A stretch of 17,345 nt of DNA from NCBI GenBank assembly GCA_964457585.1, contig CAYWFU010000066.1:1-17345 (forward strand), given 5' to 3'. The stretch is from an uncultured bacterium (GTDB lineage Bacteria > JACRDZ01). The position numbers and the translations under genes are program-made. Position 1 is the stretch's first letter. Each line of letters opens with the position of its first letter. Of the stretch, positions 2,674 to 17,345 are shown in pieces. The notes under the pieces are model-generated. The model made no database searches, was not told the DNA's origin, and was given only the letters and a program-made list of their open reading frames with translations.

Positions 2674-2836
2674 TTTAATATGAAATATTGCAGTATGGCT
2701 TAATTAAGTTATAATTAATTATTACAAAATTATAGAAAAAAATCCATAGTTTTATGGAATTAATTCTATGATTAATGAACGTTTCATATGTGTATATCCC
2801 CTTAATATATTTGCTCAATTATATTATGTTATTCAA

Positions 2837-3247
2837 ATGAATACCAAGAAACCCATGAAAAAAATCGATAATTTTTCAAAAAACCGTTTATTTAATTTTA
2901 AGGAAATCCTTTTAGTTGATGACGAAGAGGATCTCGGATGGATTTTGCAAAAAGTTTTCAACGATATAGGATATAAATTTATTTTTGCTTCAACGATTAA
3001 AGATGGATTAAAAAAAATTAAAAAATATGAAAATATTGATGTGGCAATAATTGATTTTAAAATAGATAGAGAAAACGGTTTTGATTTTATTAAAAAAGCA
3101 AAAAAAATAAATAGCAAAGTTGAATTTATTATGATATCGGCATTTGGAGATTCAGATATAAAAGAAAAAGCAAAACAATCGGGTATTCAACATTTTTTGG
3201 ATAAACCTATAAAGTTAGAAAAATTATTATACCTGGTAAGGCAGTGA
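2837..3247 (+). CDS. Stand-alone response regulator receiver (CheY-like) domain protein
   Basis: Receiver motifs LLVDDEE ... AIIDFKIDRENG ... IMISAFGD ... K. No output domain. The N-terminal 23 aa of the ORF-track version (start 2768) do not look native; the start is most likely the ATG at 2837 or 2855. Confidence 0.7.
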   Translation: MNTKKPMKKIDNFSKNRLFNFKEILLVDDEEDLGWILQKVFNDIGYKFIFASTIKDGLKKIKKYENIDVAIIDFKIDRENGFDFIKKAKKINSKVEFIMISAFGDSDIKEKAKQSGIQHFLDKPIKLEKLLYLVRQ

Positions 3248-3259
3248 GTCATAAAATTT

Positions 3260-4849
3260 ATGAATGAAACAAATCATACTAATAATCTACCAAAAGGTGA
3301 ATTAAAAAGAGCTGTCGATGCATGGAGATTGGGTTGGGATTCTGTTAATAAGATGTTCTATACCCATGATAATACTTATAAAATTGTAAGAGTGAATAAA
3401 GCATTTGCGAATTTCTTTAACCTTTCTCCAAAAGAAATTATCGGTAAAAAATGTTATGAATTAATTCATGGAACTTGTGATCCAACCGCAAGCTGTCCTT
3501 ATAATAAAATTGTTGAAACCCAAAAACCAATGACCACAGAATTTTTTGAAAAGCATCTTGAAATTCATCTTGAAGTAACAGCATCTCCAATATTCGATTC
3601 TACAGGTATTATAATAGGAAGCACCAATTTTATTACTGATATTACCGAAAGAAAACAGTTTGAAACGAGATTACAAAAAAGTGAAGAACGATTTCGCACT
3701 TCAGTGGATTGTATGCTGGATTGTTTTGGTATTTATTCTGCTATTCGCAACAAAAGCAATAAGATCATAGATTTCAAAATAGATTATGTAAACGATGAAG
3801 CCTGCAAAAACAATTTTATGTCTAAAGAAGAACAAATTGGCAAGAACCTTCTGGAAATACTTCCAGCTCAAAAAAAACTTGGACTTTTTGAAAAATATTG
3901 TCAGGTCGTGGAAACAGGCACCCCTTTGATCGAAGAAAAATTTATTTATGAAGATTATTATAAAGGACGATTTATTTCGAGAATATTTGATATAAGAGCC
4001 GTGAAACTGGGAGATAGTTTTGTTGCTTCATGGAGGGATATTACTGAACGAAAAAAAGCCGAAGAAGAAATAATAAAAGAAAAAAACAGGGTTGAGGAGC
4101 TATTAAATAAGCTGGATATTGCATATAAAAAATTAAAAGAAACACAAAATGAACTTCTCCATCGTGAAAAAATTGCGACAACCGGTGTTCTTGCCGCAGG
4201 TGTAGCACATGAAATAAGAAATCCTCTTGCTATTATTGGCATGACTGTCAATTATCTTGAAAGTAAACTTAAGGAGAATGATCCCAAAAGAGAACTTACT
4301 GAAGCCATAATAAAAAAAGTGGAGAGACTGGATAAAGTAACCAAGGAACTTTCAAATTACGGCCGGACAACAGAACTTAATATAAAAAGACGTAATACTA
4401 ATAAATGTATAAATTTAAATCTATCTCTGATTAAGACTAAATGCAAAGTTCAGGGAATAAAGATAGTAAAAAATTTTTCAAAACTTCCATTGGTTGATAT
4501 TGATGATGAACAGATGGATAAAGTTTTTCTGAATATCCTTGATAATGCAGTACAGGCTATGGGAAAAGGAGGAATATTAACCATTTCAACAAATATGGAT
4601 AAAGAAAATAATATGGTAGTTATAGAAATCAGTAATACCGGACCTTCAATAGAAAATAAATATCTCTCGCATATTTTTGAACCATTTTTCACAGCAAAAA
4701 AAAAGGGTACGGGACTGGGGCTTGCAATTGCTCAGAATGTTGTATTCAGACACAATGGGAAGATTGAAGTTAAAAATAGAACATTGAACAAAAATAAAGG
4801 AGTTAGTTTTGTTATTTGTCTGCCGGTTAACTCTTCTATTAAGGAATAA
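3260..4849 (+). CDS. Cytoplasmic sensor histidine kinase with two PAS domains (HisKA + HATPase_c)
   Basis: H-box AHEIRNPLAII, N-box NILDNAVQAM, G1 ISNTGPSI, G2 GTGLGLAI. Two PAS-like segments. No hydrophobic transmembrane segments. The first PAS is Cys-rich (CYELIHGTCDPTASCPYNK). Confidence 0.85.
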   Translation: MNETNHTNNLPKGELKRAVDAWRLGWDSVNKMFYTHDNTYKIVRVNKAFANFFNLSPKEIIGKKCYELIHGTCDPTASCPYNKIVETQKPMTTEFFEKHLEIHLEVTASPIFDSTGIIIGSTNFITDITERKQFETRLQKSEERFRTSVDCMLDCFGIYSAIRNKSNKIIDFKIDYVNDEACKNNFMSKEEQIGKNLLEILPAQKKLGLFEKYCQVVETGTPLIEEKFIYEDYYKGRFISRIFDIRAVKLGDSFVASWRDITERKKAEEEIIKEKNRVEELLNKLDIAYKKLKETQNELLHREKIATTGVLAAGVAHEIRNPLAIIGMTVNYLESKLKENDPKRELTEAIIKKVERLDKVTKELSNYGRTTELNIKRRNTNKCINLNLSLIKTKCKVQGIKIVKNFSKLPLVDIDDEQMDKVFLNILDNAVQAMGKGGILTISTNMDKENNMVVIEISNTGPSIENKYLSHIFEPFFTAKKKGTGLGLAIAQNVVFRHNGKIEVKNRTLNKNKGVSFVICLPVNSSIKE

Positions 4850-4864
4850 AAAGGAATATAAATA

Positions 4865-6277
4865 ATGGAATATGACAATACATTGACCGGTAATAAAATA
4901 TTAGTCATTGATGATGAAAACGAAATCGGCTGGATATTTTCTAAAATACTTGGTGATGCCGGATATAATATAATTTCCACTACTTCAGGCAAAGAGGGTT
5001 TGAAAAAATTAATTTCGTTTACTCCTGATCTTATTTTTTTGGATCTAAAACTGCCTGATGAAAACGGAATAGATATTTTGAAAAAAATAAAAGAAATAGA
5101 TAGTGAAATCATGGTAATTATGATTACAGCATTTGAAACAATCCATGATGCTGTGGCAGCAATGAAATTAGGAGCTTATGATTATATCCCCAAACCTATT
5201 CCAAATGATAGGTTAAAAATAATTGTTGATCAGGCAATAGAAAAAAAGCATCTATCAAAAAAAGTAGACTTATTGACCAGAGATATCAACGCTCTTGATG
5301 AGATTGTCGGCCAGTCTCCTGCAATTCAAAAAGTATTTAAGCTGATACAGAATGTAGCCCAGCATGATATTAGTGTAATATTAAGAGGGGAAAGCGGAAC
5401 AGGGAAGGAACTTGTTGCAAGAGCAATTCATTCATTAAGCAAAAGAAAGGATAAATTCTTCGTACCTGTTGATTGCGCTACTCTACCCGATACTCTGGTC
5501 GAAAGCGAGCTATTCGGATATGAGAAAGGTGCTTTTACAGGAGCAGACTCGTTAAAAATAGGTAGATTTGAAATGGCAAATGAAGGGACAATATTTTTAG
5601 ATGAAATAGGGAATCTTGCCATGCATATTCAGATAAAGCTTCTTAGAGTACTTCAGGAGGGAACAGTAGAACGTCTGGGAGGGAGAAAGACAAAAAAACT
5701 TGATGTAAGAATAATTAGTGCGACAAACAAAAATTTGGAAGAAGCTCTCGAAACAGGTGAATTCAGAGACGATCTATATCATCGTCTGAATGTTTTTGAA
5801 ATAACTCTTCCGCCTCTTCGGGAAAGAGGGGATGATTTGATAATTCTTTCACAATATTTTTTAAATAAATTTAATAATGAATATAACAAACATGTGGAGG
5901 GATTTTCAGATGAAGTCATGGAAATATTCAGGACTTACTCGTGGCCCGGAAATGTAAGAGAATTAGGAAATACCATAAGAGCCAGTATTATTCTGGCTAA
6001 AGACAAAATCATGGTAAATAATCTTCCTGCAAGAATAAGATTAAATCTTGAAATTCACAAAAATAAAATTATCCCTGATATTAATATTAAAGAAAAATTA
6101 GATGTAATGACTTTAAAAAGTATTAAAAAAAATGTTGTTCAAAATATGGAAAAACAAATTATAGAGCAAGTTTTAAGTGATGTAAACTGGAACAAGACGA
6201 AGGCAAGCAAAATACTTGATATTGATTATAAAAGCCTTTATAACAAAATCAAACAATATAACATAGCCAAATCATAG
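4865..6277 (+). CDS. Sigma-54-dependent transcriptional activator, NtrC family (receiver + AAA+ sigma-54 interaction domain + Fis-type HTH)
   Basis: Receiver domain (LVIDDENE ... FLDLKLPD). Walker A GESGTGKE, GAFTGA motif (EKGAFTGAD), Walker B IFLDEIG, arginine finger region. C-terminal HTH (KTKASKILDIDYKSLYNKIKQY). Good Shine-Dalgarno sequence (aaagga) upstream. Confidence 0.9.
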   Translation: MEYDNTLTGNKILVIDDENEIGWIFSKILGDAGYNIISTTSGKEGLKKLISFTPDLIFLDLKLPDENGIDILKKIKEIDSEIMVIMITAFETIHDAVAAMKLGAYDYIPKPIPNDRLKIIVDQAIEKKHLSKKVDLLTRDINALDEIVGQSPAIQKVFKLIQNVAQHDISVILRGESGTGKELVARAIHSLSKRKDKFFVPVDCATLPDTLVESELFGYEKGAFTGADSLKIGRFEMANEGTIFLDEIGNLAMHIQIKLLRVLQEGTVERLGGRKTKKLDVRIISATNKNLEEALETGEFRDDLYHRLNVFEITLPPLRERGDDLIILSQYFLNKFNNEYNKHVEGFSDEVMEIFRTYSWPGNVRELGNTIRASIILAKDKIMVNNLPARIRLNLEIHKNKIIPDINIKEKLDVMTLKSIKKNVVQNMEKQIIEQVLSDVNWNKTKASKILDIDYKSLYNKIKQYNIAKS

Positions 6278-8442: not shown

Positions 8443-9129
8443 TTATTTAATTTCGATTTTTGAAATCATGTATTCTCTTAGTTTTTCAATTTCTTCAGCA
8501 TTTTTGTCATAAAAAGGAATGAGTGTGTGGTATGTGCTTATTTTATTAATATCTTTCACTTCAACAATTTTGATATCTTCCGGAAGCCATTCTTTTATTC
8601 TGTGATGAGCACCTATAAAAGCTATTCCTGTTTCGTTTTCATTTAAAGTTTTGGTTATTACTTGAGCAATAAATTTATCTCTTTTTGTTAAAAGTTTATT
8701 TTTAACAAATTTGTACTTTAGAAATGCAATAATCTTTTTAAGTTTTGATTTCTCCTGTGTTATTGCAACCAGGCTGTCGCGTTCTTTAAGAATCATATTA
8801 TAATCTTCTGTTTTAACCAGGATTGCTCCGCGATTAACAATGTCTTTTAATAAAGAATAGTTTTTGCTTCCTGATTTTACACCCTCTTCAATTATTTTTA
8901 TTCCAATTTCGCCATCTGCTATCATTCCATCCTGATATATTTTTATACCTGATACATTTATCGATTTGAAATAATCTGTAATTACTTCCCAGAATCCAAG
9001 CACAGTATTAAGATGTTTTTCCCATACATCTCCACCTAAATTTGCAATTCCTCTTTTATTAACATCTTCTCCAAGAGAGCCCAGATCAGCGCTTGTATGA
9101 ATAATAGGTACGTAAATAAGTTTTTTCAT
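8443..9129 (-). CDS. Hypothetical protein in the gvp operon (228 aa)
   Basis: Long ORF, tightly spaced (14 nt) after the gvpJ-like gene on the same strand. No motif I can name. It sits where gvpT/gvpU would be in the B. megaterium gene order, but that is a positional inference only. Confidence 0.55.
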   Translation of the reverse strand: MKKLIYVPIIHTSADLGSLGEDVNKRGIANLGGDVWEKHLNTVLGFWEVITDYFKSINVSGIKIYQDGMIADGEIGIKIIEEGVKSGSKNYSLLKDIVNRGAILVKTEDYNMILKERDSLVAITQEKSKLKKIIAFLKYKFVKNKLLTKRDKFIAQVITKTLNENETGIAFIGAHHRIKEWLPEDIKIVEVKDINKISTYHTLIPFYDKNAEEIEKLREYMISKIEIK

Positions 9130-9143
9130 TGTCTTACTCCTAA

Positions 9144-9446
9144 TCAGGTTACATTTATCCTCTGTTCAAGACGATCTAATCTTTTTGTTATTTCATCATT
9201 TATATTATTATTTTTTGTTTCTTCTTTTGTGACCAAATAGGGATCGTTCTGCCACCAGTTTATCCCCATTTCCATTGCTTTATCCACAGAACTGATTAAA
9301 AGACGAATCTTAATATTAAGCAGATCTATATCAGCAAGTTGTATGCTTATGTCACCGCAAATTACTATTCCCTTATCCAATACTCTTTCCAGAATATCAG
9401 CCAGATTTGTTGCTTCAGTAGCATGTATCAATTTTTGATCAGACAT
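9144..9446 (-). CDS. gvpJ: Gas vesicle protein GvpJ (GvpA-family minor protein)
   Basis: GvpA-family core LADILERVLDKGIVICGDISIQLADIDLLNIKIRLLISSVDKA plus a C-terminal GINWWQNDPYL motif characteristic of GvpJ. It lacks the WxRVSLVGIE motif of the major GvpA. Confidence 0.8.
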   Translation of the reverse strand: MSDQKLIHATEATNLADILERVLDKGIVICGDISIQLADIDLLNIKIRLLISSVDKAMEMGINWWQNDPYLVTKEETKNNNINDEITKRLDRLEQRINVT

Positions 9447-9450
9447 TATA

Positions 9451-9717
9451 TTATTCTCCTATATTTCCCAATTTTTCAATTAATTCAGCTGTTTTCTGAC
9501 GCAATTTCGAAATAGCATGGCAGTTGATGCAATCCATACTTTCAGCATCATAGTCGCTGCAAATAAGAAGAGTATCTACCTCATGCTTGAGTTCTTCGGC
9601 AAATATGGATTTATCATGATTATCTTTAGATTTGTTAACTTTATCTATAAGATTCCCAATTAAGAGCTCTTGTTTGTTGAATATCTGACAATCTATTTCA
9701 GACATTTTTTTATACAT
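9451..9717 (-). CDS. Hypothetical small Cys-containing protein (88 aa) in the gvp operon
   Basis: ORF 4 nt upstream of gvpJ. Four Cys including CINCH (CxxC). SD-like GGGGGA before the ATG. Not recognisably GvpA-family. Confidence 0.45.
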   Translation of the reverse strand: MYKKMSEIDCQIFNKQELLIGNLIDKVNKSKDNHDKSIFAEELKHEVDTLLICSDYDAESMDCINCHAISKLRQKTAELIEKLGNIGE

Positions 9718-9740
9718 TTTTCCCCCAGATTCATTAAATT

Positions 9741-9784
9741 AAGCCTGATAAATCAGGCAACTACAAAAATTTTAATGTAGTTGC
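9741..9784. repeat. Repeat family A copy 1: double-hairpin element (gcctgatAaatcaggc + gcaactaca...tgtagttgc)
   Basis: Same architecture and about 85% identity to copies at 14995-15041 and 17299-17345. All sit upstream of start codons of minus-strand genes. Confidence 0.7.
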
Positions 9785-9809
9785 TCGATTTATCGAGCGA
9801 AATTATAAA

Positions 9810-9929
9810 CTTTCAATTTCCTATACATTAAATTAGATCCCCGATAAAAAATGTCGGGGATGACATATAAGAAAGTTGTGTCATTCCCGACATTTTTTAT
9901 CGGGAATCTTGTCTTTCAATTTCCTATAC
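9810..9929. repeat. MITE-like element: 73-bp near-perfect hairpin (30-bp arms, 9836-9865 / 9879-9908) flanked by a 17-bp direct repeat ctttcaatttcctatac (9810-9826, 9913-9929)
   Basis: Arms gatccccgataaaaaatgtcggggatgaca and its reverse complement (28/30 match), 13-nt loop. Exact 17-bp direct repeats on both sides. Located between gvpK and the downstream 88-aa ORF. Confidence 0.6.
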
Positions 9930-10259
9930 CTATAAATTAATATTTAATTTTAAATCTTCATCTTTCAATCCGAAAAGATCTTTCATCTCCTGCATCTTTT
10001 TTTCTAATTTCATCAGGGATTCACCGATTCTTTCAATTTCGTCTTCTGATAGAGACCCACCTTCAATTCTCCTTATTGCCTGTTTCTCCATAAGCTCTCT
10101 TAAGAGCTCAATTAATGCTAATACTAATCTGGCTAAACCATGCTCAACTTTATCAGGATCAACGTTAATATTATTTAACGAAAGTTTATCTATTTGTGAT
10201 AATTCATCTGTGAATTCTTTTGCTAAAATTGGGTCGATAGGGACTTTATTGCAATCCAT
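9930..10259 (-). CDS. gvpK: Gas vesicle protein GvpK
   Basis: GLARLVLALIELLRELMEKQAIRRIEGGSLSEDEIERIGESLMKLEKKMQEMKDLFGLKDEDL matches the conserved GvpK core (LV ... ELLRQLMERQA-RR ... L ... E ... LG ... L ... L ... FGL ... DL). Confidence 0.85.
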   Translation of the reverse strand: MDCNKVPIDPILAKEFTDELSQIDKLSLNNINVDPDKVEHGLARLVLALIELLRELMEKQAIRRIEGGSLSEDEIERIGESLMKLEKKMQEMKDLFGLKDEDLKLNINL

Positions 10260-11052
10260 TTAATAATCCCTCCTCCTTATCTGTAAAATTATAAGGCGGC
10301 CATGGTCCTGTAAAAAGAAATTTCAGATCCTTTCTTCCCTGTTCCAGTTCTCTGATTCTATTGATAAATTTATCTTCTTTTCCTTTTTCAACCAAAAAAT
10401 TTGCATCCAGAATTATTTTTTTTGTTAGCATCTTTTTAAACGTACTCAATGAACTTACCTCTTCCAGGTAAGGATAAATATCGTTTATTATATTCTCAGC
10501 ATTTTTCATTAATGCTTCTTCATGTTTATATTTTTTAAATTTATTAGCTAAATACTTCCGATACGGGGAATTACCTTCCAGAGCATCAAATATTTTTTGA
10601 CTTTCTTTTAAACAACTAAATGGTATTATTTTTTGACCTGCATTTTCATAATCCCACATTACTTTCAATCCGAATTCCAGTTTATTTTTAACTCTCTGTA
10701 AATTGAGATTAAATTTATCGTATTGCTCTTTTAAAAGTTTTACAATTTCACTTTCTTCTTCAAATGCTGTCCCGAATCTAAAAGGAAGAAGCGAATAATT
10801 TTCCATTAAATCTTCTATTATTTTTTCATATTCAAGTATACATTTTTTGTTAATTTTTAATCTATGGTCCCATATTTCACTAACAGCAATTGCAATATCT
10901 CCGTATGACAGGCAATATAAATAGGAATCGTACAATCCTTTGAAACCAAGTCCTGTTTTATTTATGGAATTATTCGAAATATTAAGATTGGATTCCTTTT
11001 CAATAATGCACGTAAAATCCAATATCGCATAACAGCATTTAACCATTTTCAT
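10246..11052 (-). CDS. GvpF/GvpL family gas vesicle protein (paralog 4, 268 aa)
   Basis: N-terminal YAI ... AVSE, central LPFRFGT, C-terminal ANFLVEKGKEDKF ... TGPWPPYNF. These are hallmarks of GvpF/L. Confidence 0.8.
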   Translation of the reverse strand: MKMVKCCYAILDFTCIIEKESNLNISNNSINKTGLGFKGLYDSYLYCLSYGDIAIAVSEIWDHRLKINKKCILEYEKIIEDLMENYSLLPFRFGTAFEEESEIVKLLKEQYDKFNLNLQRVKNKLEFGLKVMWDYENAGQKIIPFSCLKESQKIFDALEGNSPYRKYLANKFKKYKHEEALMKNAENIINDIYPYLEEVSSLSTFKKMLTKKIILDANFLVEKGKEDKFINRIRELEQGRKDLKFLFTGPWPPYNFTDKEEGLLNGLQ

Positions 11053-11139
11053 AAAATCACCTCGATTTTATTTTTGGTAATGTCAAAAATTAACCACAGA
11101 GAACACAGAGAAACCTTTAAATATTAAATTGTATAAATT

Positions 11140-11167
11140 GTAGAGACGCAAAATTTTGCGTCTCTAC
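11140..11167. repeat. Repeat family B copy 1: perfect 28-bp palindrome GTAGAGACGCAAAATTTTGCGTCTCTAC
   Basis: Perfect dyad. An identical copy lies at 14962-14989. Nested inside a larger imperfect inverted repeat (cacagagaacacagag / ctctgtgtcctc). About 90-115 nt upstream of the GvpF/L start at 11052. Confidence 0.7.
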
Positions 11168-11320: not shown

Positions 11321-11509
11321 TTATCCTTTTATTCTTAGCTTTTCCATAGTCTCAACAGAACTCAAAAGCACTCTTAATCCGATATATATAAGATCTATAT
11401 CAGCCACGGAAATAACAATATCTCCGCTTAAAACCACTCCTTTATTCAAAACTCTGTCCAGAATTTCAACCAGATTTATATCATTTGTTTTGGTAATAGT
11501 ATTTTTCAT
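11321..11509 (-). CDS. Small GvpA-family gas vesicle protein, GvpS/J/M-like (62 aa)
   Basis: LVEILDRVLNKGVVLSGDIVISVADIDLIYIGLRVLLSSVETM is the GvpA-family core, but with GDIxISxADIDL instead of the DAWVRVSLVGIE of the major shell protein. It resembles B. megaterium GvpS / haloarchaeal GvpJ/M. Start overlaps the upstream gene stop (ATGA). Confidence 0.8.
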   Translation of the reverse strand: MKNTITKTNDINLVEILDRVLNKGVVLSGDIVISVADIDLIYIGLRVLLSSVETMEKLRIKG

Positions 11510-12366
11510 TTATTTTTTTGTACCTCTGTCATATTAACAAAATTAAACGGAGGCCATGGACCGGAATACTCGAATTCAAAACCTGTTTCACTATATTCTT
11601 TTTTCAATTCTTCGATCGTATCAAAAAATCCATTTACATTTTTTTTGAATAAAAGATAGCTTGAGTTAAATATCATTTTGTTTTTATGCAAATTCGCATT
11701 TTCAGTAAATAATTTGTTTATTACTGCTTCATGCGATTGGCTGCTGAATTTATCGAAACAATATTTTATATAATCATCTAAAATTTTATTTGTCTCGCAG
11801 GCAATTAATTCATCTCTTTTTTTCTTTAATAAAAAAGCCTTTCCAGGACCAGAGCAAAAAATTTTCTGATCATGCTGTTTGATTCTTTCGCTTGTTTCGG
11901 ATATTTTTTTATTCAAGATATTCATATTGCAATATATTTTCAATGCCCATTCTTCTTTATCGTTGAGTTTATATATGTTATCCATTAATTGCGGAGTATA
12001 CTCATCAATCATCTCTTTTAAACTTTCCTCGGTTTTAAATATAGTGCCGAATTTGAATGGAACTATTGTCATATTTTTCATTATGATTCTATTTATATTC
12101 ATATGCGCTTTTACCCTTGGGATAACCCATCCCATCTTACATAAATTTTTTTCTATATTAGTCTCTCCGAATTCATCACTGGAAACAAGTCTGGCAGCAG
12201 CATAAATATCATTATGTCTGATACAAAAAATATCATCGCATAAATCCGAATTTTTCAAATCCGGCTCTCTCAAAGTAATACAATAAATATATAACAGATT
12301 TCCCATATTGAATTTTCTCCAATCATCTTCCCGATTATGATTAGTGTTTCTGTTCATATGATTCAA
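11506..12366 (-). CDS. gvpL: GvpF/GvpL family gas vesicle protein (paralog 3, 286 aa; GvpL-like by position)
   Basis: YIYCI ... AARLVSS, VPFKFGTIF, C-terminal NSSYLLFKKNVNGF ... YSGPWPPFNFV. Located between gvpG and the gvpS-like gene, as gvpL is in B. megaterium. Confidence 0.7.
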   Translation of the reverse strand: MNHMNRNTNHNREDDWRKFNMGNLLYIYCITLREPDLKNSDLCDDIFCIRHNDIYAAARLVSSDEFGETNIEKNLCKMGWVIPRVKAHMNINRIIMKNMTIVPFKFGTIFKTEESLKEMIDEYTPQLMDNIYKLNDKEEWALKIYCNMNILNKKISETSERIKQHDQKIFCSGPGKAFLLKKKRDELIACETNKILDDYIKYCFDKFSSQSHEAVINKLFTENANLHKNKMIFNSSYLLFKKNVNGFFDTIEELKKEYSETGFEFEYSGPWPPFNFVNMTEVQKNK

Positions 12367-12586
12367 CTTCCAGCGCTGTGTTTAATTTAATGTCGTATAC
12401 ATTTCTATCTTTTACTCTGGTCGGTAGTCCGAGAGCTTTTATAAAAGAACTTTCTTCATATGCTTCAGCTTCTGCATACCATCCATCAGCTAATTTTGAT
12501 GTTTTAATAATTTTAATGTCTTCTGTATGTAATGTATTTTTTAAAAATACTGCGACGATTTTTTCAACTTCTTCAATATTGTTCAT
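12341..12586 (-). CDS. Hypothetical 81-aa acidic protein in the gvp operon
   Basis: ORF overlapping both neighbours on the same strand. No motif I can assign. Co-operonic with the gvp genes. Confidence 0.45.
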   Translation of the reverse strand: MNNIEEVEKIVAVFLKNTLHTEDIKIIKTSKLADGWYAEAEAYEESSFIKALGLPTRVKDRNVYDIKLNTALEVESYEQKH

Positions 12587-12836
12587 CAGAATCCCCCTCT
12601 TTCATTTTTCTGATAGCATCCAATTGAGATAAAATTTCTTTTTCATTTTTAATGTATTCTTCTTCACTGATCTCATCCAATTCAAAATCTAGCTGTAATT
12701 TCATGAGTCTTTCTTTTATTTTTCCTTCATCAGATATTTCTTTATCTAATACTTCGCTCAACTTTTCCCCAAGCCAGATAACACCATTCAAAGGTGAAAA
12801 CAATAGATCATCAATTATAAACATTATTTTTCCCAT
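12573..12836 (-). CDS. gvpG: Gas vesicle protein GvpG
   Basis: N-terminal FIIDDLLFSPLNGVIWLGEKL and C-terminal acidic coiled region LQLDFELDEISEEEY ... match GvpG. About 85 aa. Confidence 0.75.
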   Translation of the reverse strand: MGKIMFIIDDLLFSPLNGVIWLGEKLSEVLDKEISDEGKIKERLMKLQLDFELDEISEEEYIKNEKEILSQLDAIRKMKEGDSDEQY

Positions 12837-13594
12837 TCTTCCGGATATATTGTAATATTCACAAAATTGAATATTGGCAATGGTCCAACATATTTAAATT
12901 TGGTTCTATCGGAATATTCTTCATTTAAATCATCGACAATATTATCAAATTCTTTTTCTCGTCCCTTATCCACTAAAAATGCGGCATTAATAAACATGTT
13001 ATCTCCGATAGTTGGATTAAGCTTATAATCAAGAGCCGATTTTTTTACAGCATTAATAATTTTATTCGTCTCGTCTTCCTTTTTTATCTTAAGGGCATAT
13101 TCAACCATTTTCCCAATTTCAACGGTTGCGTTTACATTCTCTCTTACGGAACTTTTTTGGATTTTTTGCTTCAGCAGCTTAATATCATCGTTTTCATCGA
13201 CAATTTCCTTGAAAATATTTTCACTGTTTTTCCATAAACCCTTAATACCAAGCTCTATCTTGTTTTCCATGACTTTTAAAGTATCCTTAAACTCTTTATA
13301 TCGTCTATCGAGTAAATTTCTTATTTCATCCTGCGAAGCAGCAATTGTTCCAAATCGAACAGGCAGAACGCTGCTAAACTCCTTCATTACTTCTTCTATA
13401 ACTTTTTGATGTGACAGTAGATACTCTCTTGCAACTGGAAATTTGGTTACAGGATGACTGCTTATCACCATGCTTAAATTATTGGATCCTATTGTCAGAA
13501 CATCATCGCCTCTTGCACCGATTCCTATTGGGCCGAAAGACATCTCTTTATCCGAACATATTATGCAGTAAACGTATTTTCCTTCTGATATCAT
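12824..13594 (-). CDS. gvpF: GvpF/GvpL family gas vesicle protein (paralog 2, 256 aa; GvpF-like by position)
   Basis: YVYCII ... SMVISS, VLPVRFGTI, AAFLVDKGREKEFD ... YVGPLPIFNFV. Immediately upstream of gvpG, as in the canonical F-G order. Confidence 0.8.
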   Translation of the reverse strand: MISEGKYVYCIICSDKEMSFGPIGIGARGDDVLTIGSNNLSMVISSHPVTKFPVAREYLLSHQKVIEEVMKEFSSVLPVRFGTIAASQDEIRNLLDRRYKEFKDTLKVMENKIELGIKGLWKNSENIFKEIVDENDDIKLLKQKIQKSSVRENVNATVEIGKMVEYALKIKKEDETNKIINAVKKSALDYKLNPTIGDNMFINAAFLVDKGREKEFDNIVDDLNEEYSDRTKFKYVGPLPIFNFVNITIYPEEWEK

Positions 13595-13602
13595 TTTTCA
13601 CC

Positions 13603-14742
13603 TCATTCACAAATTCTGACTATTATTGAATTTTTTTCAAAATCTTCTTTTTTGAAAGAACAGAAATCGTCTTGACAATAATCCGAAATAATCTTGTAAG
13701 CTCTTGTACTTTCATCAAACTCACTTGCAATATTCTCTTTATCCGGATTTCTGTCAGGATGAGTTAATAAAGCTTTCATCTGATGCGCTCTTCTTATTTC
13801 TTCTTTAGTAGCTGTTATATCCAGCCCGAGCTTCTTTCTGCACCAATCAATTTCTTCAAATTGCATTTTCTTAATTTCAAATGCATAAAAATTATAAGTG
13901 GGCAACGGACCAATAATTTTAAAATTCAACTGTTCATTAAATTCACAATTTAACTCTTCTATTTTTTTATTGAAATCTTCAAATTTGTTTTTATTAATTA
14001 AGAAAGCAAAATTACCTATCGTTTTATCATCTTCTGGTATTTGAGATTTACTGCTTTCGACAATTTCATCCAGTGAAGTCTCTATTCGAAGTGTATATTC
14101 TTTTATTCTTTTGTTAACAAAATCCTGAACCATAATACCGAGTTTTATTTTATCCTCAATAGTTACGTTCTCTGCTTTATTAATAAGGTTTTGTTTTGCA
14201 TCCAGAATATCTTTTTCATGACCTATTTCAGTTAAAACTGAGTTAAAATTATTCCATTTGACTATGACATTCATTTCTATCATGTCACTCATCTTATTGA
14301 ATATATCATTTATTATTCTATAACCTTTACTCAAGGACAACCTCACATTATCATCATTATCAATAAAAGTACCGAATTTAACAGGAATGACAGTATGATT
14401 AGACATTATTTCTTCTATTACTTTTTGGTGATTTACAAGTTCTTTAAGTAATGTTTCTTTGAATATGGATGTATAATCTTTAAAAGGTAATCTGCTAACA
14501 ACACAGGCAATATCCTGATGGTTAATCGTATATATTTCGTCAGCTACCATACTGCGGAATTTTTCGATCTTTTCAAAATTGCGAAATACATTCGATTTTT
14601 CATTATTTATCTTAATGATAGCGTATACATATGTCATAAGATTAAAATTTTCATAATGTTTTACAGGAAAACTGCTTGCGAACTTTTCTGAAAATTTATC
14701 AGCAAATTTAAATTGAGTCAATTTAAGCATAGGATCCTCCAT
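13603..14742 (-). CDS. GvpF/GvpL family protein fused to a C-terminal DnaJ-type J-domain (379 aa)
   Basis: The N-terminal about 290 aa have GvpF/L hallmarks (YVYAII, VIPVKFGTF, NFAFLINKNKFEDF ... IIGPLPTYNFY). The C-terminal about 70 aa are a J-domain: W ... KLGLDITATKEEIRRAHQMKALLTHPDRNPDKENIASEFDESTRAYKIISD, with the invariant HPD tripeptide. Confidence 0.8.
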   Translation of the reverse strand: MEDPMLKLTQFKFADKFSEKFASSFPVKHYENFNLMTYVYAIIKINNEKSNVFRNFEKIEKFRSMVADEIYTINHQDIACVVSRLPFKDYTSIFKETLLKELVNHQKVIEEIMSNHTVIPVKFGTFIDNDDNVRLSLSKGYRIINDIFNKMSDMIEMNVIVKWNNFNSVLTEIGHEKDILDAKQNLINKAENVTIEDKIKLGIMVQDFVNKRIKEYTLRIETSLDEIVESSKSQIPEDDKTIGNFAFLINKNKFEDFNKKIEELNCEFNEQLNFKIIGPLPTYNFYAFEIKKMQFEEIDWCRKKLGLDITATKEEIRRAHQMKALLTHPDRNPDKENIASEFDESTRAYKIISDYCQDDFCSFKKEDFEKNSIIVRICE

Positions 14743-14765: not shown

Positions 14766-14930
14766 TCAGTTAATTTTATTTTTTTTGTTTAATTTTAGAG
14801 ATAACATATTATTTAACATTTGTACTGCCTTTTGTGGTAACCTCATTTCATTCTGCTCTAAAGTTTGCGTTTTATTTATAAAAGACTTGGAAAATAATTT
14901 TTTTTTTAATTCTTCCATTATTTTTTTCAT
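14766..14930 (-). CDS. Unannotated small ORF (54 aa, MKKIMEELKKKLFSKSFINKTQTLEQNEMRLPQKAVQMLNNMLSLKLNKKNKIN)
   Basis: Hand translation of the minus strand. It has the same AAGGAAG-N7-ATG-AAA-AAA leader as the CDC48-like gene. It ends 24 nt before the GvpF/L-J start. Below the ORF-track length cutoff. Confidence 0.35.
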   Translation of the reverse strand: MKKIMEELKKKLFSKSFINKTQTLEQNEMRLPQKAVQMLNNMLSLKLNKKNKIN

Positions 14931-14961
14931 TTCAAACTTCCTTTAAATTAGATTCTGAACT

Positions 14962-14989
14962 GTAGAGACGCAAAATTTTGCGTCTCTAC
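14962..14989. repeat. Repeat family B copy 2: perfect 28-bp palindrome GTAGAGACGCAAAATTTTGCGTCTCTAC
   Basis: Identical to 11140-11167. Located 32-59 nt upstream of the 54-aa ORF start, between repeat A copy 2 and the duplicated leader. Confidence 0.7.
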
Positions 14990-14994
14990 ACATT

Positions 14995-15041
14995 AAGCCT
15001 GTTGAATCAGGCAACTACAATGCATTATATTTGTAGTTGCC
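14995..15041. repeat. Repeat family A copy 2 (gcctgtTgaatcaggc + gcaactacaatgcattatatttgtagttgcc)
   Basis: Same two-hairpin architecture as 9741-9784 and 17299-17345. Immediately followed by a third small palindrome gcccaattcattgggc (15039-15054). Confidence 0.7.
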
Positions 15042-15077
15042 CAATTCATTGGGCATAAAATGAATACTTTTAAATTC

Positions 15078-17279
15078 CTATACTTTCAAATTATCATTAT
15101 TCGAATTTTTAAGTATTTTTATTGCATCATTAAAATGTTCCATTGTAAGTTTAAAAATCTCTATTTCCTTTTCATCCTGACCATTCTTAATCTTTTCCAA
15201 ATATTCTCTCATGCAAAACATTGATGCCTGCTTGCAAATTGATTTTAAATAAGCACCTGTTAATCCGTCCGTTTTCTCTGCAATTATTTTAAGATCGACA
15301 TCTTTATCCAGAGTCCTGCCTTCCGTATATATTTTAAGTATATCAATCCTTGCATTTTCGTCTGGAGCCGGTAATTTCAATTTCAAATCAAATCTACCGG
15401 ATCTTAATATAGCAGGGTCGATCATATCAATCCTGTTTGTAGCTCCTAGAATTATTACATCTTTTAATTCTTCAATCCCATCAAGCTCAGTCAGGAACTG
15501 GCTAATTACTCGTTCAGTAGTATTGCTCGAATCCCCTCCCCCTGATCCTCTTTTGGGAACTATGGCGTCTATCTCATCAAAAAAAATTATTACCGGTGCA
15601 ACCTGCCTGGCTTTTTTAAAAATTTCTCTTATTCCACGCTCACTCTCACCCAAATATTTACTGATTAATGCAGGTCCTTTAACTGAAATGAAATTAAGTT
15701 CACTCTCAGTTGCCACAGCTTTTGCAAGAAGAGTTTTACCTGTTCCGGGGGCTCCATACAATAATATTCCCTTTGGCGATTGAATTTTTTCTTTTTTGAA
15801 AATTTTTGCATATTTGATTGGCCATTCTATTGCTTCTTGCAGCTCTTTTTTTATTTCTTCAAGCCCACCTACGTCTTCCCATCTAACATTTGGTATTTCA
15901 ACAAAAACCTCTCTTATTGCCGATGGTTCAACTTCCTTCATGGCATCTAAAAAATTATCCATTGTGACTTCAAGTTTCATTAAAATTTCAAACGGTATTT
16001 CCGCCATTTCAAAATCAATTTTCGGTAATATGTTTCTTAATGCTGACATTGCTGCTTCTCGTGCTAGAGCTTCCAGATCTGCTCCGACAAAACCATGTGT
16101 AACTTCAGCTAATTTTTCCAGGTTAACAGCCTCTGTGTTTTCTCCAATATTTTGACCTTCTGCTTTTTTAAGCGGCATACCTCTTGTATGTATTTGTAAA
16201 ATTTCCAATCTTCCGTTTTTATCAGGTATTGAAATACTTATTTCTCTATCAAAACGTCCGGGTCTGCGTAAAGCTGGATCTATCATATTTGGAAGGTTAG
16301 TTGCCCCGATGATAATAATATGCCCCCTGGATTCCAATCCATCCATTAAAGCCAGAAGCTGAGCAACCACTCTGCGTTCAACCTGTTTTTCTACTCCCAT
16401 ATCTTCCCTTTTAGGAGCAATGGCATCTATCTCATCAATAAAAATTATTGCTGGAGCGTGTGCCTGCGCATCTTTAAAAACTTCCCGCAGACGAGCTTCA
16501 CTTTCTCCGTAAAATTTTCCCATAATTTCAGGGCCTGATATATGCGTAAAATATGTATCTGTTTCATTGGCAACAGCTCGTGCGATGAGAGTCTTCCCTG
16601 TACCGGGAGGGCCGTAAAGAAAAACTCCTTTGGGAGGAGTAATACCCAATCTTTCAAATATCTGCGGATATTTTAACGGAAGTTCTATCATCTCTCTGAT
16701 TCTTTGAATTTGCACACCAAGTCCGCCTATATCCTCATAACTGATTTTAGCTTTTTCTTTTTTAGCTCCTTTTGTTTTGATTTTTATCTGAGTAGAGGGA
16801 TTTATCTTAATAATACCTTCAGGGATAGTATCTATTACCCTGTAGTCAGATGTTTTTGTACCGAACAGAGAAACTCTGATTTTGTCTCCTACCACAACAG
16901 GCATTCCTTCAACGAGAGAATTTACATATTTAATATCTTTATCACCCTGGAATAAGGTTAATGCTGTTAATGGCAAGAGTATAATTTTGCTTGCGGTTTT
17001 ATAATCTATTTTTTTTATTTTCACTTTTTCATCAAGACCGGTCTGGGAATTTTCGCGTGATATCCCATCCATTTGAATAATATTTTTTCCTCTATCTTCC
17101 GAATAGCATGGCATTACTTTGGCAGGTGTTTTTCTTTTCCCTTCAACTTCAACAATATCACCTAATTCCAAACCAAGCAGTTTCATGCTTTCAGGATCCA
17201 TCCTGACAATTGCTCTACCCACGTCTTTTGGTAAAGCTTCTTTAACTTTCAAGATAATCGGGTCATTATTTTTTTTCAT
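15078..17279 (-). CDS. CDC48/VAT/p97-like double AAA+ ATPase (N domain + D1 + D2)
   Basis: N-terminal CDC48-N-like [39 protein letters not shown]. Two Walker A motifs GPPGTGKTL / GAPGTGKTL. Two Walker B motifs IIFIDEIDA / IIFFDEIDA. Second-region-of-homology arginines. 733 aa. Confidence 0.9.
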
Positions 17280-17298
17280 TTCAAACTTCCTTTAAATT

Positions 17299-17345
17299 AA
17301 GCCTGATGAATCAGGCAACTACAATGCAATATGTCTGTAGTTGCC
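17299..17345. repeat. Repeat family A copy 3 (gcctgatGaatcaggc + gcaactacaatgcaatatgtctgtagttgcc), runs to the window edge
   Basis: Lies 19 nt upstream of the CDC48-like ATG. May be truncated by the window end. Confidence 0.65.

Follow-up and report, generated by a model that had tools for sequence, protein, structure and literature searches.

On the 17,345-bp contig CAYWFU010000066.1 of an uncultured bacterium, which we analyzed over its whole length and refer to as the window, a gene close to the contig end encodes a CDC48/VAT-type AAA+ ATPase beside a set of co-oriented genes for gas-vesicle proteins (Gvp). This CDC48 is probably an accessory component of a large bacterial gvp cluster, present in addition to the AAA+ ATPase GvpN, and the window would then hold only the distal half of that cluster. 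Judged by gene order in related loci, the invariant core of the cluster is a gene pair consisting of CDC48 and a GvpL/F protein with a C-terminal J domain (GvpL/F::J).

The CDC48 gene is an intact open reading frame (ORF) on the reverse strand (positions 15,078 to 17,279) that encodes 733 amino acids, with an ATG start preceded by AAGGAAG. Pfam places CDC48_N (PF02359, residues 10-92, 90.8 bits) and CDC48_2 (PF02933, residues 114-173, 38.2 bits) on it, both above cut-off, together with two AAA modules (two PF00004 stretches) and two AAA_lid_3 domains. The NCBIfam model TIGR01243, "CDC48 family AAA ATPase", spans residues 9-726 with 935.2 bits against a cut-off of 802.65. Both Walker A motifs (GPPGTGKT at 223, GAPGTGKT at 509), both Walker B motifs (IIFIDE at 278, IIFFDE at 564) and the arginine-finger motifs (RPGRFD at 339, RSGRFD at 626) are present, and the pore loops are aromatic in both rings (KFYG at 255 in D1, KYLG at 541 in D2). 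The best match in the PDB is VAT from Thermoplasma (5g4f, 760 bits, residues 4-693), with human p97 at 631 bits. All family features that could be tested are found, and by these the ORF is a VAT-like double-ring CDC48-family unfoldase, much as a sequence-only reading of the window had described it (a 733-aa protein with a CDC48-N domain and tandem D1 and D2 modules). Through its 760-bit alignment to hexameric VAT, the protein is predicted to form stacked hexameric rings that thread substrates in an ATP-driven manner. Public annotation already lists these genes as "CDC48 family AAA ATPase".

VAT from Thermoplasma acidophilum (PDB 5g4f, 5vc7) and archaeal Cdc48 share with the window protein an N domain built of a double-psi barrel and a beta-clam, the D1 and D2 modules and the aromatic pore loops in both rings. 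They differ from it in that the window gene is bacterial, lies in a gas-vesicle operon, lacks an HbYX tail and has an N domain at 32-41% identity to outgroup proteins. The HbYX tail is what docks archaeal Cdc48 on the 20S proteasome. The window protein ends in ...NDNLKV, without a tail of this type (penultimate tyrosine), and the C-terminal tail is not conserved within its homologs: among the 30 commonest C-terminal tripeptides, which come from about 90 of the best 120 homologs, one (LYT) carries a penultimate tyrosine. Because such a tyrosine occurs in only 16 of 85 broader representatives, the HbYX test discriminates weakly.

Gene order in related gas-vesicle clusters

About 30 related loci were examined in metagenome-assembled genomes (MAGs) that their sources name Omnitrophica, Syntrophorhabdales and Bacteroidetes, among others. 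Five of these loci were reached via the top homologs, 21 are metagenome loci at 64-75% identity, and further ones come from MAGs named Syntrophorhabdales or Bacteroidetes; their genes were labeled by tblastn, with the window proteins and the upstream proteins of one Omnitrophica locus (L003) as queries. The usual order, with variable members in brackets, starts with (histidine kinase, response regulator, sigma-54 enhancer-binding protein, response regulator), gvpA, 2 to 4 unassigned genes, GvpN, two small genes, Hsp20, (an ArsA/Get3-like protein) and CDC48. It continues with (a small ORF), GvpL/F::J, GvpF, a second GvpF, GvpG, an 81-aa protein and GvpL/F, and ends with a small GvpA-like protein, (GvpF/L), GvpK, an 88-aa protein, a GvpJ-like protein and a 228-aa protein.

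CDC48 lies mid-cluster in this arrangement, and GvpN is found upstream of it in all 18 loci that have at least 3.3 kb of upstream sequence; the GvpN of L003 scores 337.8 bits, above the TIGR02640 equivalog cut-off of 266.8. Further upstream than GvpN is the relatives' gvpA, which encodes 68 amino acids and is 94-98% conserved. The immediate upstream neighbor of CDC48 is hsp20 and/or an arsA/Get3-like gene in 25 of 25 loci, counting those of the 64-75% clade that extend upstream of CDC48 at all, and GvpL/F::J comes directly after CDC48 in nearly all loci that extend downstream. On two short contigs (L025 and L030), no GvpL/F::J was found within the 270-414 nt available downstream. An operon is indicated by gene boundaries that abut or overlap in the relatives. 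In L041 the end of ArsA at 10004 lies beyond the CDC48 start at 10001, as does the end of CDC48 at 12211 beyond the GvpL/F::J start at 12208 in L040.

The same association is recovered from the side of the J-domain protein. Its homologs nearly all keep both domains, and 118 of 120 keep the HPD motif. Two divergent GvpL/F::J fusions, at 33% identity to the one in the window, have CDC48 directly before them and GvpN upstream, and the CDC48-GvpL/F::J pair is also kept in L043, a cluster without hsp20 and arsA.

In tblastn comparisons the window matches the distal half of the relatives' clusters gene for gene. Domain searches and tblastn across the whole window found no GvpN of the AAA_5/TIGR02640 type, as the sequence-only reading had stated, and likewise no 68-aa major GvpA, no Hsp20 and no ArsA-like gene. 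Since the major gvpA is indispensable, the cluster visible in the window is incomplete. The proximal half, made up of gvpA, several unassigned genes, gvpN, hsp20 and probably an arsA/Get3-like gene, would lie beyond the contig end.

This gene order bears directly on whether CDC48 has replaced GvpN as the AAA+ engine of the cluster and stands as the first gene of its operon. We regard this as very improbable, even though the 17.3-kb window contains no GvpN and no gene of the co-oriented block is visible before CDC48, because the contig ends 66 nt upstream inside a repeat, the major gvpA is absent from the window as well, and CDC48 coexists with GvpN in 18 of 18 relatives and is mid-cluster in all of them. 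With GvpN and CDC48 encoded in the same cluster of the relatives, one is no substitute for the other. Both are AAA+ ATPases encoded in gvp clusters, but GvpN (TIGR02640) has about 305-335 amino acids and a single MoxR-like AAA_5 module, whereas CDC48 has 733 amino acids with N, D1 and D2 and belongs to a different AAA+ clade. The sequence-only reading had CDC48 at the head of the cluster, at the place where GvpN would be expected; with hsp20 or arsA-like genes before CDC48 in every one of the 25 loci and GvpN upstream in every one of the 18, neither statement can be kept. A conventional gvpN and gvpA upstream, which that reading had proposed to look for, were found in every informative relative, these being relatives and not this genome.

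Clusters of a similar style have been known since 2010, when gvp clusters with hsp20 and an arsA homolog were reported from Polaribacter irgensii, Pelodictyon luteolum and Geobacter uraniireducens (Castillo and Saier 2010, PMC2963123). They resemble the relatives' clusters in having gvpN, multiple gvpL/F paralogs, gvpG, gvpJ and gvpK, hsp20 and an arsA-like ATPase gene, but neither CDC48 nor a J-domain-fused GvpL/F is mentioned there. The conserved CDC48-GvpL/F::J pairing appears to be undiscussed so far. A gvp-cluster CDC48 was not described in the literature searched, which left most subscription-journal papers uncovered, so that a prior description is possible; two papers mention gas vesicles together with cdc48 or valosin, in both cases incidentally (PMC6107691, PMC9258230).

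REP-like repeats at the contig end

The window is the entire contig, and it ends 66 nt upstream of the CDC48 start codon, inside a hairpin resembling repetitive extragenic palindromic (REP) elements. This hairpin, GGCAACTACA-N12-TGTAGTTGCC, occurs at 15010-15041 and again at 17314-17345, with 0 copies expected by chance. The CDC48 gene is also present in an independent Logan assembly, of 2,288 bp, which on either side breaks off at these repeats too. Since the contig end lies inside a hairpin that has a second copy and the Logan assembly breaks in the same way, the assembly break most probably occurred at the repeat. The case is a caution for the reading of gene clusters at contig ends, as the appearance of a CDC48 in the place of GvpN was produced by a contig break at a repeat.

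An exact 30-nt repeat, TAATTTAAAGGAAGTTTGAAATGAAAAAAA, spans the Shine-Dalgarno sequence and the start of both CDC48 and the 54-aa ORF that follows it. The shared leader and start context noted in the sequence-only reading is therefore real, in that hairpin and 30-nt repeat are both present in two copies, but it is made up of REP-like repeats and this separate 30-nt duplication and is not a common gvp-specific regulatory leader. Each leader copy pairs two units in inverted orientation, with the pattern GTAGTT-GCC..(short hairpin)..GGC, as in GCCCAATGAATTGGGC-AACTACA-loop-TGTAGTT-GCCTGATTCAACAGGC. Inverted pairs of the GTAGTTGCC-hairpin units lie at 9738-9787, 14993-15058 and 17296-17345, a GTAG palindrome is found at 11134-11167 and 14958-14989, and further REP-like copies or related palindromes occupy the operon gaps at 9738-9787, 9835-9909, 11134-11167 and 14958-14989. 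By their anatomy the leader repeats look like REP elements paired as REP doublets forming hairpins (REPINs). A 17-nt direct repeat (9810-9826 and 9913-9929) lies on either side of the element at 9835-9909, in the manner of a target-site duplication.

The GTAGTTGCC... unit is also multi-copy in an unrelated MAG of 50% GC, CBDUUU01 (L009 3986-4019, L010 324-357, L012 4883-4916), the GC content of the window contig being 30%. A scan for the hairpin repeat across species-representative genomes returned this unit and chance matches only. For the spacer that separates CDC48 from the small ORF, the predicted RNA fold has -54.7 kcal/mol (z = -8.3). A search of the window at Rfam gathering thresholds gave no match, leader hairpins included, and scans for a sigma-54 promoter pattern, sigma-70 promoters and terminators gave no excess over shuffled sequence. 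Hairpins of REP elements or bacterial interspersed mosaic elements (BIMEs) in Escherichia coli operons can serve as mRNA stability barriers. By analogy, the REP-like hairpins here could possibly do the same.

A bacterial CDC48 clade and its possible role

The best 120 homologs of the window CDC48 are 67-71% identical to it, except for the window's own protein and an over-long match at 56% (P0002). Their source-given names are all bacterial and comprise Nitrospirota, Omnitrophica, Syntrophorhabdales/Syntrophorhabdaceae and Bacteroidetes. The view in the sequence-only reading that CDC48 is uncommon in bacteria was thus overstated, given more than 100 homologs at 67-71%, every named one bacterial, and a Dadabacteria clade separate from them. 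That reading was right that the neighbors in the window look bacterial, with a sigma-54 enhancer-binding protein, an M23 peptidase and an HD-GYP protein. An archaeal origin of the contig was rejected on account of these same genes and of the bacterial MAG names of all close relatives.

In a rough neighbor-joining tree with full-length representatives of the wider family as outgroups, the sampled top homologs form one clade. Representatives at 50% identity merge the gvp-linked clade with other CDC48s and were used solely as a source of outgroups. The sister group is a CDC48 from Dadabacteria/Thermodesulfobacteriota at 53% identity, and several of the source-named nearest representatives outside the clade are archaeal (Thermoplasmatota, Woesearchaeota and Halobacteria). 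In Dadabacteria the CDC48 gene adjoins a prepilin peptidase and unrelated genes, not gvp genes. Sequence comparison delimits a distinct bacterial CDC48 clade linked to gas-vesicle clusters. Identity of the N domain is 73% within this clade against the 32-41% to outgroups given above; for D1 the two values are 83% and about 60%. Substrates or adaptors are usually bound by the N-terminal barrel in the CDC48 family. An N domain that is conserved within the clade and diverged from the outgroups argues for a conserved, clade-specific partner. Other bacterial members of the CDC48 family are Cpa, the actinobacterial Cdc48-like protein, and the Dadabacteria clade, the latter set apart by its 53% identity and its prepilin-peptidase neighborhood without gvp genes. 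Cpa is a proteasome interactor.

A housekeeping CDC48 that adjoins gvp genes by chance is barely credible against these data. Archaea and eukaryotes do use CDC48 as a general proteostasis enzyme, and the Dadabacteria sister clade sits in an unrelated context, but the same gene order recurs in about 30 loci across several source-named bacterial phyla, starts and stops overlap in the relatives, the N domain is specific to the clade, and the association is found in reverse from the J-domain fusion. Gene order strongly disfavors both this explanation and a replacement of GvpN.

The neighbors of CDC48 suggest what an accessory component could do. GvpA is very hydrophobic and aggregation-prone, needs chaperone-like assembly factors and leads to proteotoxic stress on heterologous expression, as when it is produced by itself (PMC12848028), and the ArsA homologs and Hsp20 proteins of gvp clusters have been proposed to energize or chaperone gas-vesicle biogenesis (PMC2963123). 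Hsp20, the Get3-like ATPase, CDC48 and GvpL/F::J may together form a proteostasis block for the hydrophobic, aggregation-prone shell proteins of the GvpA family. In such a block, Hsp20 and the Get3-like ATPase would serve to hold or shield subunits of the shell, and host DnaK would come to the assembly site through the J domain on GvpL/F. Gvp subunits that have aggregated or been assembled wrongly would be threaded through CDC48 and unfolded, or CDC48 would extract subunits from collapsed vesicles, in either case for re-use or removal; GvpN would keep a separate role. The sequence-only reading had proposed an unfoldase/chaperone module that includes the J-domain fusion; synteny conserved in every related locus supports the module, and its role is suggested by the gene neighborhood.

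The DnaK/DnaJ-ClpB bi-chaperone system offers a working analogy, in which a J-domain protein targets Hsp70 and a double-ring AAA+ motor extracts polypeptides. CDC48 is not a ClpB/Hsp100 protein, however, and it lacks the M-domain for DnaK docking; cooperation with DnaK is hypothetical. A bolder version of this idea, which we put forward tentatively and hold to be possible rather than probable, is that CDC48 and GvpL/F::J form a dedicated Hsp70-coupled segregase that remodels or extracts GvpA-family subunits at the growing or collapsed vesicle wall. If so, a bacterial CDC48 would for the first time have a physiological client assigned to it, and a missing accessory activity of this kind could explain why many gvp clusters fail to assemble vesicles in heterologous hosts.

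Several points weigh against CDC48 as an accessory proteostasis component of the window's cluster. The presence of gvpA and gvpN in this genome is extrapolated from relatives, and the client, the direction of the activity (assembly quality control versus recycling or disassembly) and the cooperation with DnaK are deduced from gene neighborhood. In addition, REP-like hairpins separate CDC48 from its neighbors here, by at least 66 nt upstream and 335 nt downstream, which makes its co-transcription less certain in the window than in the relatives.

Two other roles have to be considered within a gas-vesicle context. CDC48 and p97 enzymes are segregases that extract subunits from stable assemblies. 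The window protein could be an engine for disassembly and recycling only, pulling GvpA from collapsed or surplus vesicles for recycling or sinking, with no part in assembly. Both of its pore loops are aromatic and all synteny data are compatible with this, yet nothing separates recycling from assembly quality control. The tight coupling to GvpL/F points at least equally to assembly, GvpF/L being regarded as nucleation or assembly factors (PMC2963123). A role in recycling alone is for these reasons rather doubtful.

Less likely again is a regulatory unfoldase. AAA+ unfoldases commonly drive regulated turnover, and CDC48 might unfold or remove a regulator such as the sigma-54 activator or a response regulator, following the logic by which GvpD lowers GvpE in haloarchaea. 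The window and several relatives do have genes for a two-component system and a sigma-54 enhancer-binding protein along with the cluster. However, the invariant neighbors of CDC48 are of the chaperone or structural-assembly type (Hsp20, Get3-like ATPase, GvpL/F::J) and not regulators, the position and presence of regulators vary (L005, L040 and L041 have other genes upstream), and there is neither a protease partner in the cluster nor an HbYX tail on the protein. An accessory component encoded beside GvpN remains the reading that we favor.

Gas vesicles are assembled from the highly hydrophobic GvpA, and acoustic reporter genes are being engineered from their gene clusters. A widespread type of cluster in which Hsp20, a Get3-like ATPase, CDC48 and a J-domain adaptor accompany GvpN leads to a concrete and testable hypothesis, namely that assembly or recycling includes a dedicated proteostasis of shell proteins that consumes energy. 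It would also assign a likely client to a bacterial CDC48 clade, and the association of these genes across several source-named bacterial phyla provides a testable handle on gas-vesicle assembly.

Other genes of the window and of related clusters

The features of the window are collected in the table below.

Table. Genes and repeat elements of the 17,345-bp window, ordered from the contig end through the gvp cluster to the regulatory genes.
Feature	Position	Strand	Basis and remarks
REP-like inverted repeat (REPIN-like) at the contig end upstream of CDC48	17296..17345		Repeat analysis; probable cause of the assembly break
30-nt segment with Shine-Dalgarno sequence and start codon	17270..17299	(-)	Repeat analysis; identical to 14921-14950
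CDC48/VAT double-ring AAA+ ATPase, N + D1 + D2	15078..17279	(-)	Pfam, TIGR01243, motifs, PDB VAT 5g4f
Intergenic REP-like elements between CDC48 and the small ORF: REPIN-like hairpin and 28-nt GTAG palindrome	14958..15058		Repeat analysis
54-aa small ORF (MKKIMEELKKKLFSKSF...)	14766..14930	(-)	Positional and weak sequence counterpart of the relatives' post-CDC48 small ORF; homology tentative
GvpL/F with C-terminal J domain, HPD present	13603..14742	(-)	Pfam GvpL_GvpF and DnaJ
GvpF/L paralog	12824..13594	(-)	Pfam
GvpG	12573..12836	(-)	Pfam
81-aa conserved protein	12341..12586	(-)	55-65% identity in relatives; window protein itself without Pfam match
GvpL/F paralog	11506..12366	(-)	Pfam
62-aa GvpA-family minor protein (GvpM/S/J-like)	11321..11509	(-)	Pfam, NCBIfam; not the major GvpA
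GvpF/L paralog	10246..11052	(-)	Pfam
GvpK	9930..10259	(-)	Pfam
88-aa conserved cluster protein, no family named	9451..9717	(-)	41-50% identity, same position in relatives
100-aa GvpJ-like protein, GvpA family	9144..9446	(-)	Family searches
228-aa conserved terminal cluster protein, no family named	8443..9129	(-)	53-60% identity in relatives
Response regulator, PAS histidine kinase and sigma-54 enhancer-binding protein	2768..6277	(+)	Domain search; comparable set upstream of gvpA in several relatives

The start of GvpL/F::J is ambiguous, the longest ORF having 379 amino acids and the database call (P0299) 375, which begins 4 codons downstream. By tblastn the 62-aa GvpA-family protein is orthologous to the 83-aa protein in the second half of the relatives' clusters, not to the 68-aa GvpA. 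The counterpart of the 81-aa protein at the same position has a Pfam GvpO match in L043 and a weak one in L040; a further GvpO match, in L002 (18367-18627), comes after GvpJ and not at the position of the 81-aa protein.

Many related clusters have a small ORF of 29-54 amino acids directly after CDC48, with an N-terminal amphipathic motif (M.KI[IL]EKIKNFF.GK or M.K[LF]IKGL[IV]..[IV]KKFF.GIFKKK) and a tail rich in lysine, proline and glutamate. Examples are found in L002 (12189-12332), L003 (12148-12306), L005 (10341-10454), L013 (from 9030), L015 (from 11628), L017 (from 11205) and L033 (from 930). The 54-aa ORF of the window resembles them only loosely; it has no match to a described family, and its tblastn search against the relatives gave none.

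Several additional domain matches were noted in the relatives. Among their GvpF/L paralogs are matches to Pfam PF25216 (Volactin), in L005 (13145-14149) and L041 (14994-16034). Directly after gvpA in L002 (3657-4724) is a gene for a 355-aa protein with a KaiB-domain match, at the position of the unannotated but conserved L3_u259. Faint matches to the DnaJ CXXCXGXG zinc finger or to Anti-TRAP occur in L005 (4050-4373) and L043 (12413-13180), and these proteins are possible candidates for another chaperone-type component besides the J-domain fusion.

The regulatory genes are placed differently between loci. In the window, the two-component and sigma-54 set sits at the cluster's distal end, converging on the cluster, while in L002 (1-2986), L003 (1-3569), L015 (327-2655), L017 (3-2259) and L027 (177-3668) such a set is co-oriented and upstream of gvpA. 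L020 and L023 have the two cluster halves in swapped order. This variation in the placement of the regulatory set, together with the swapped halves, shows that the gvp cluster is modular and rearranges between lineages.

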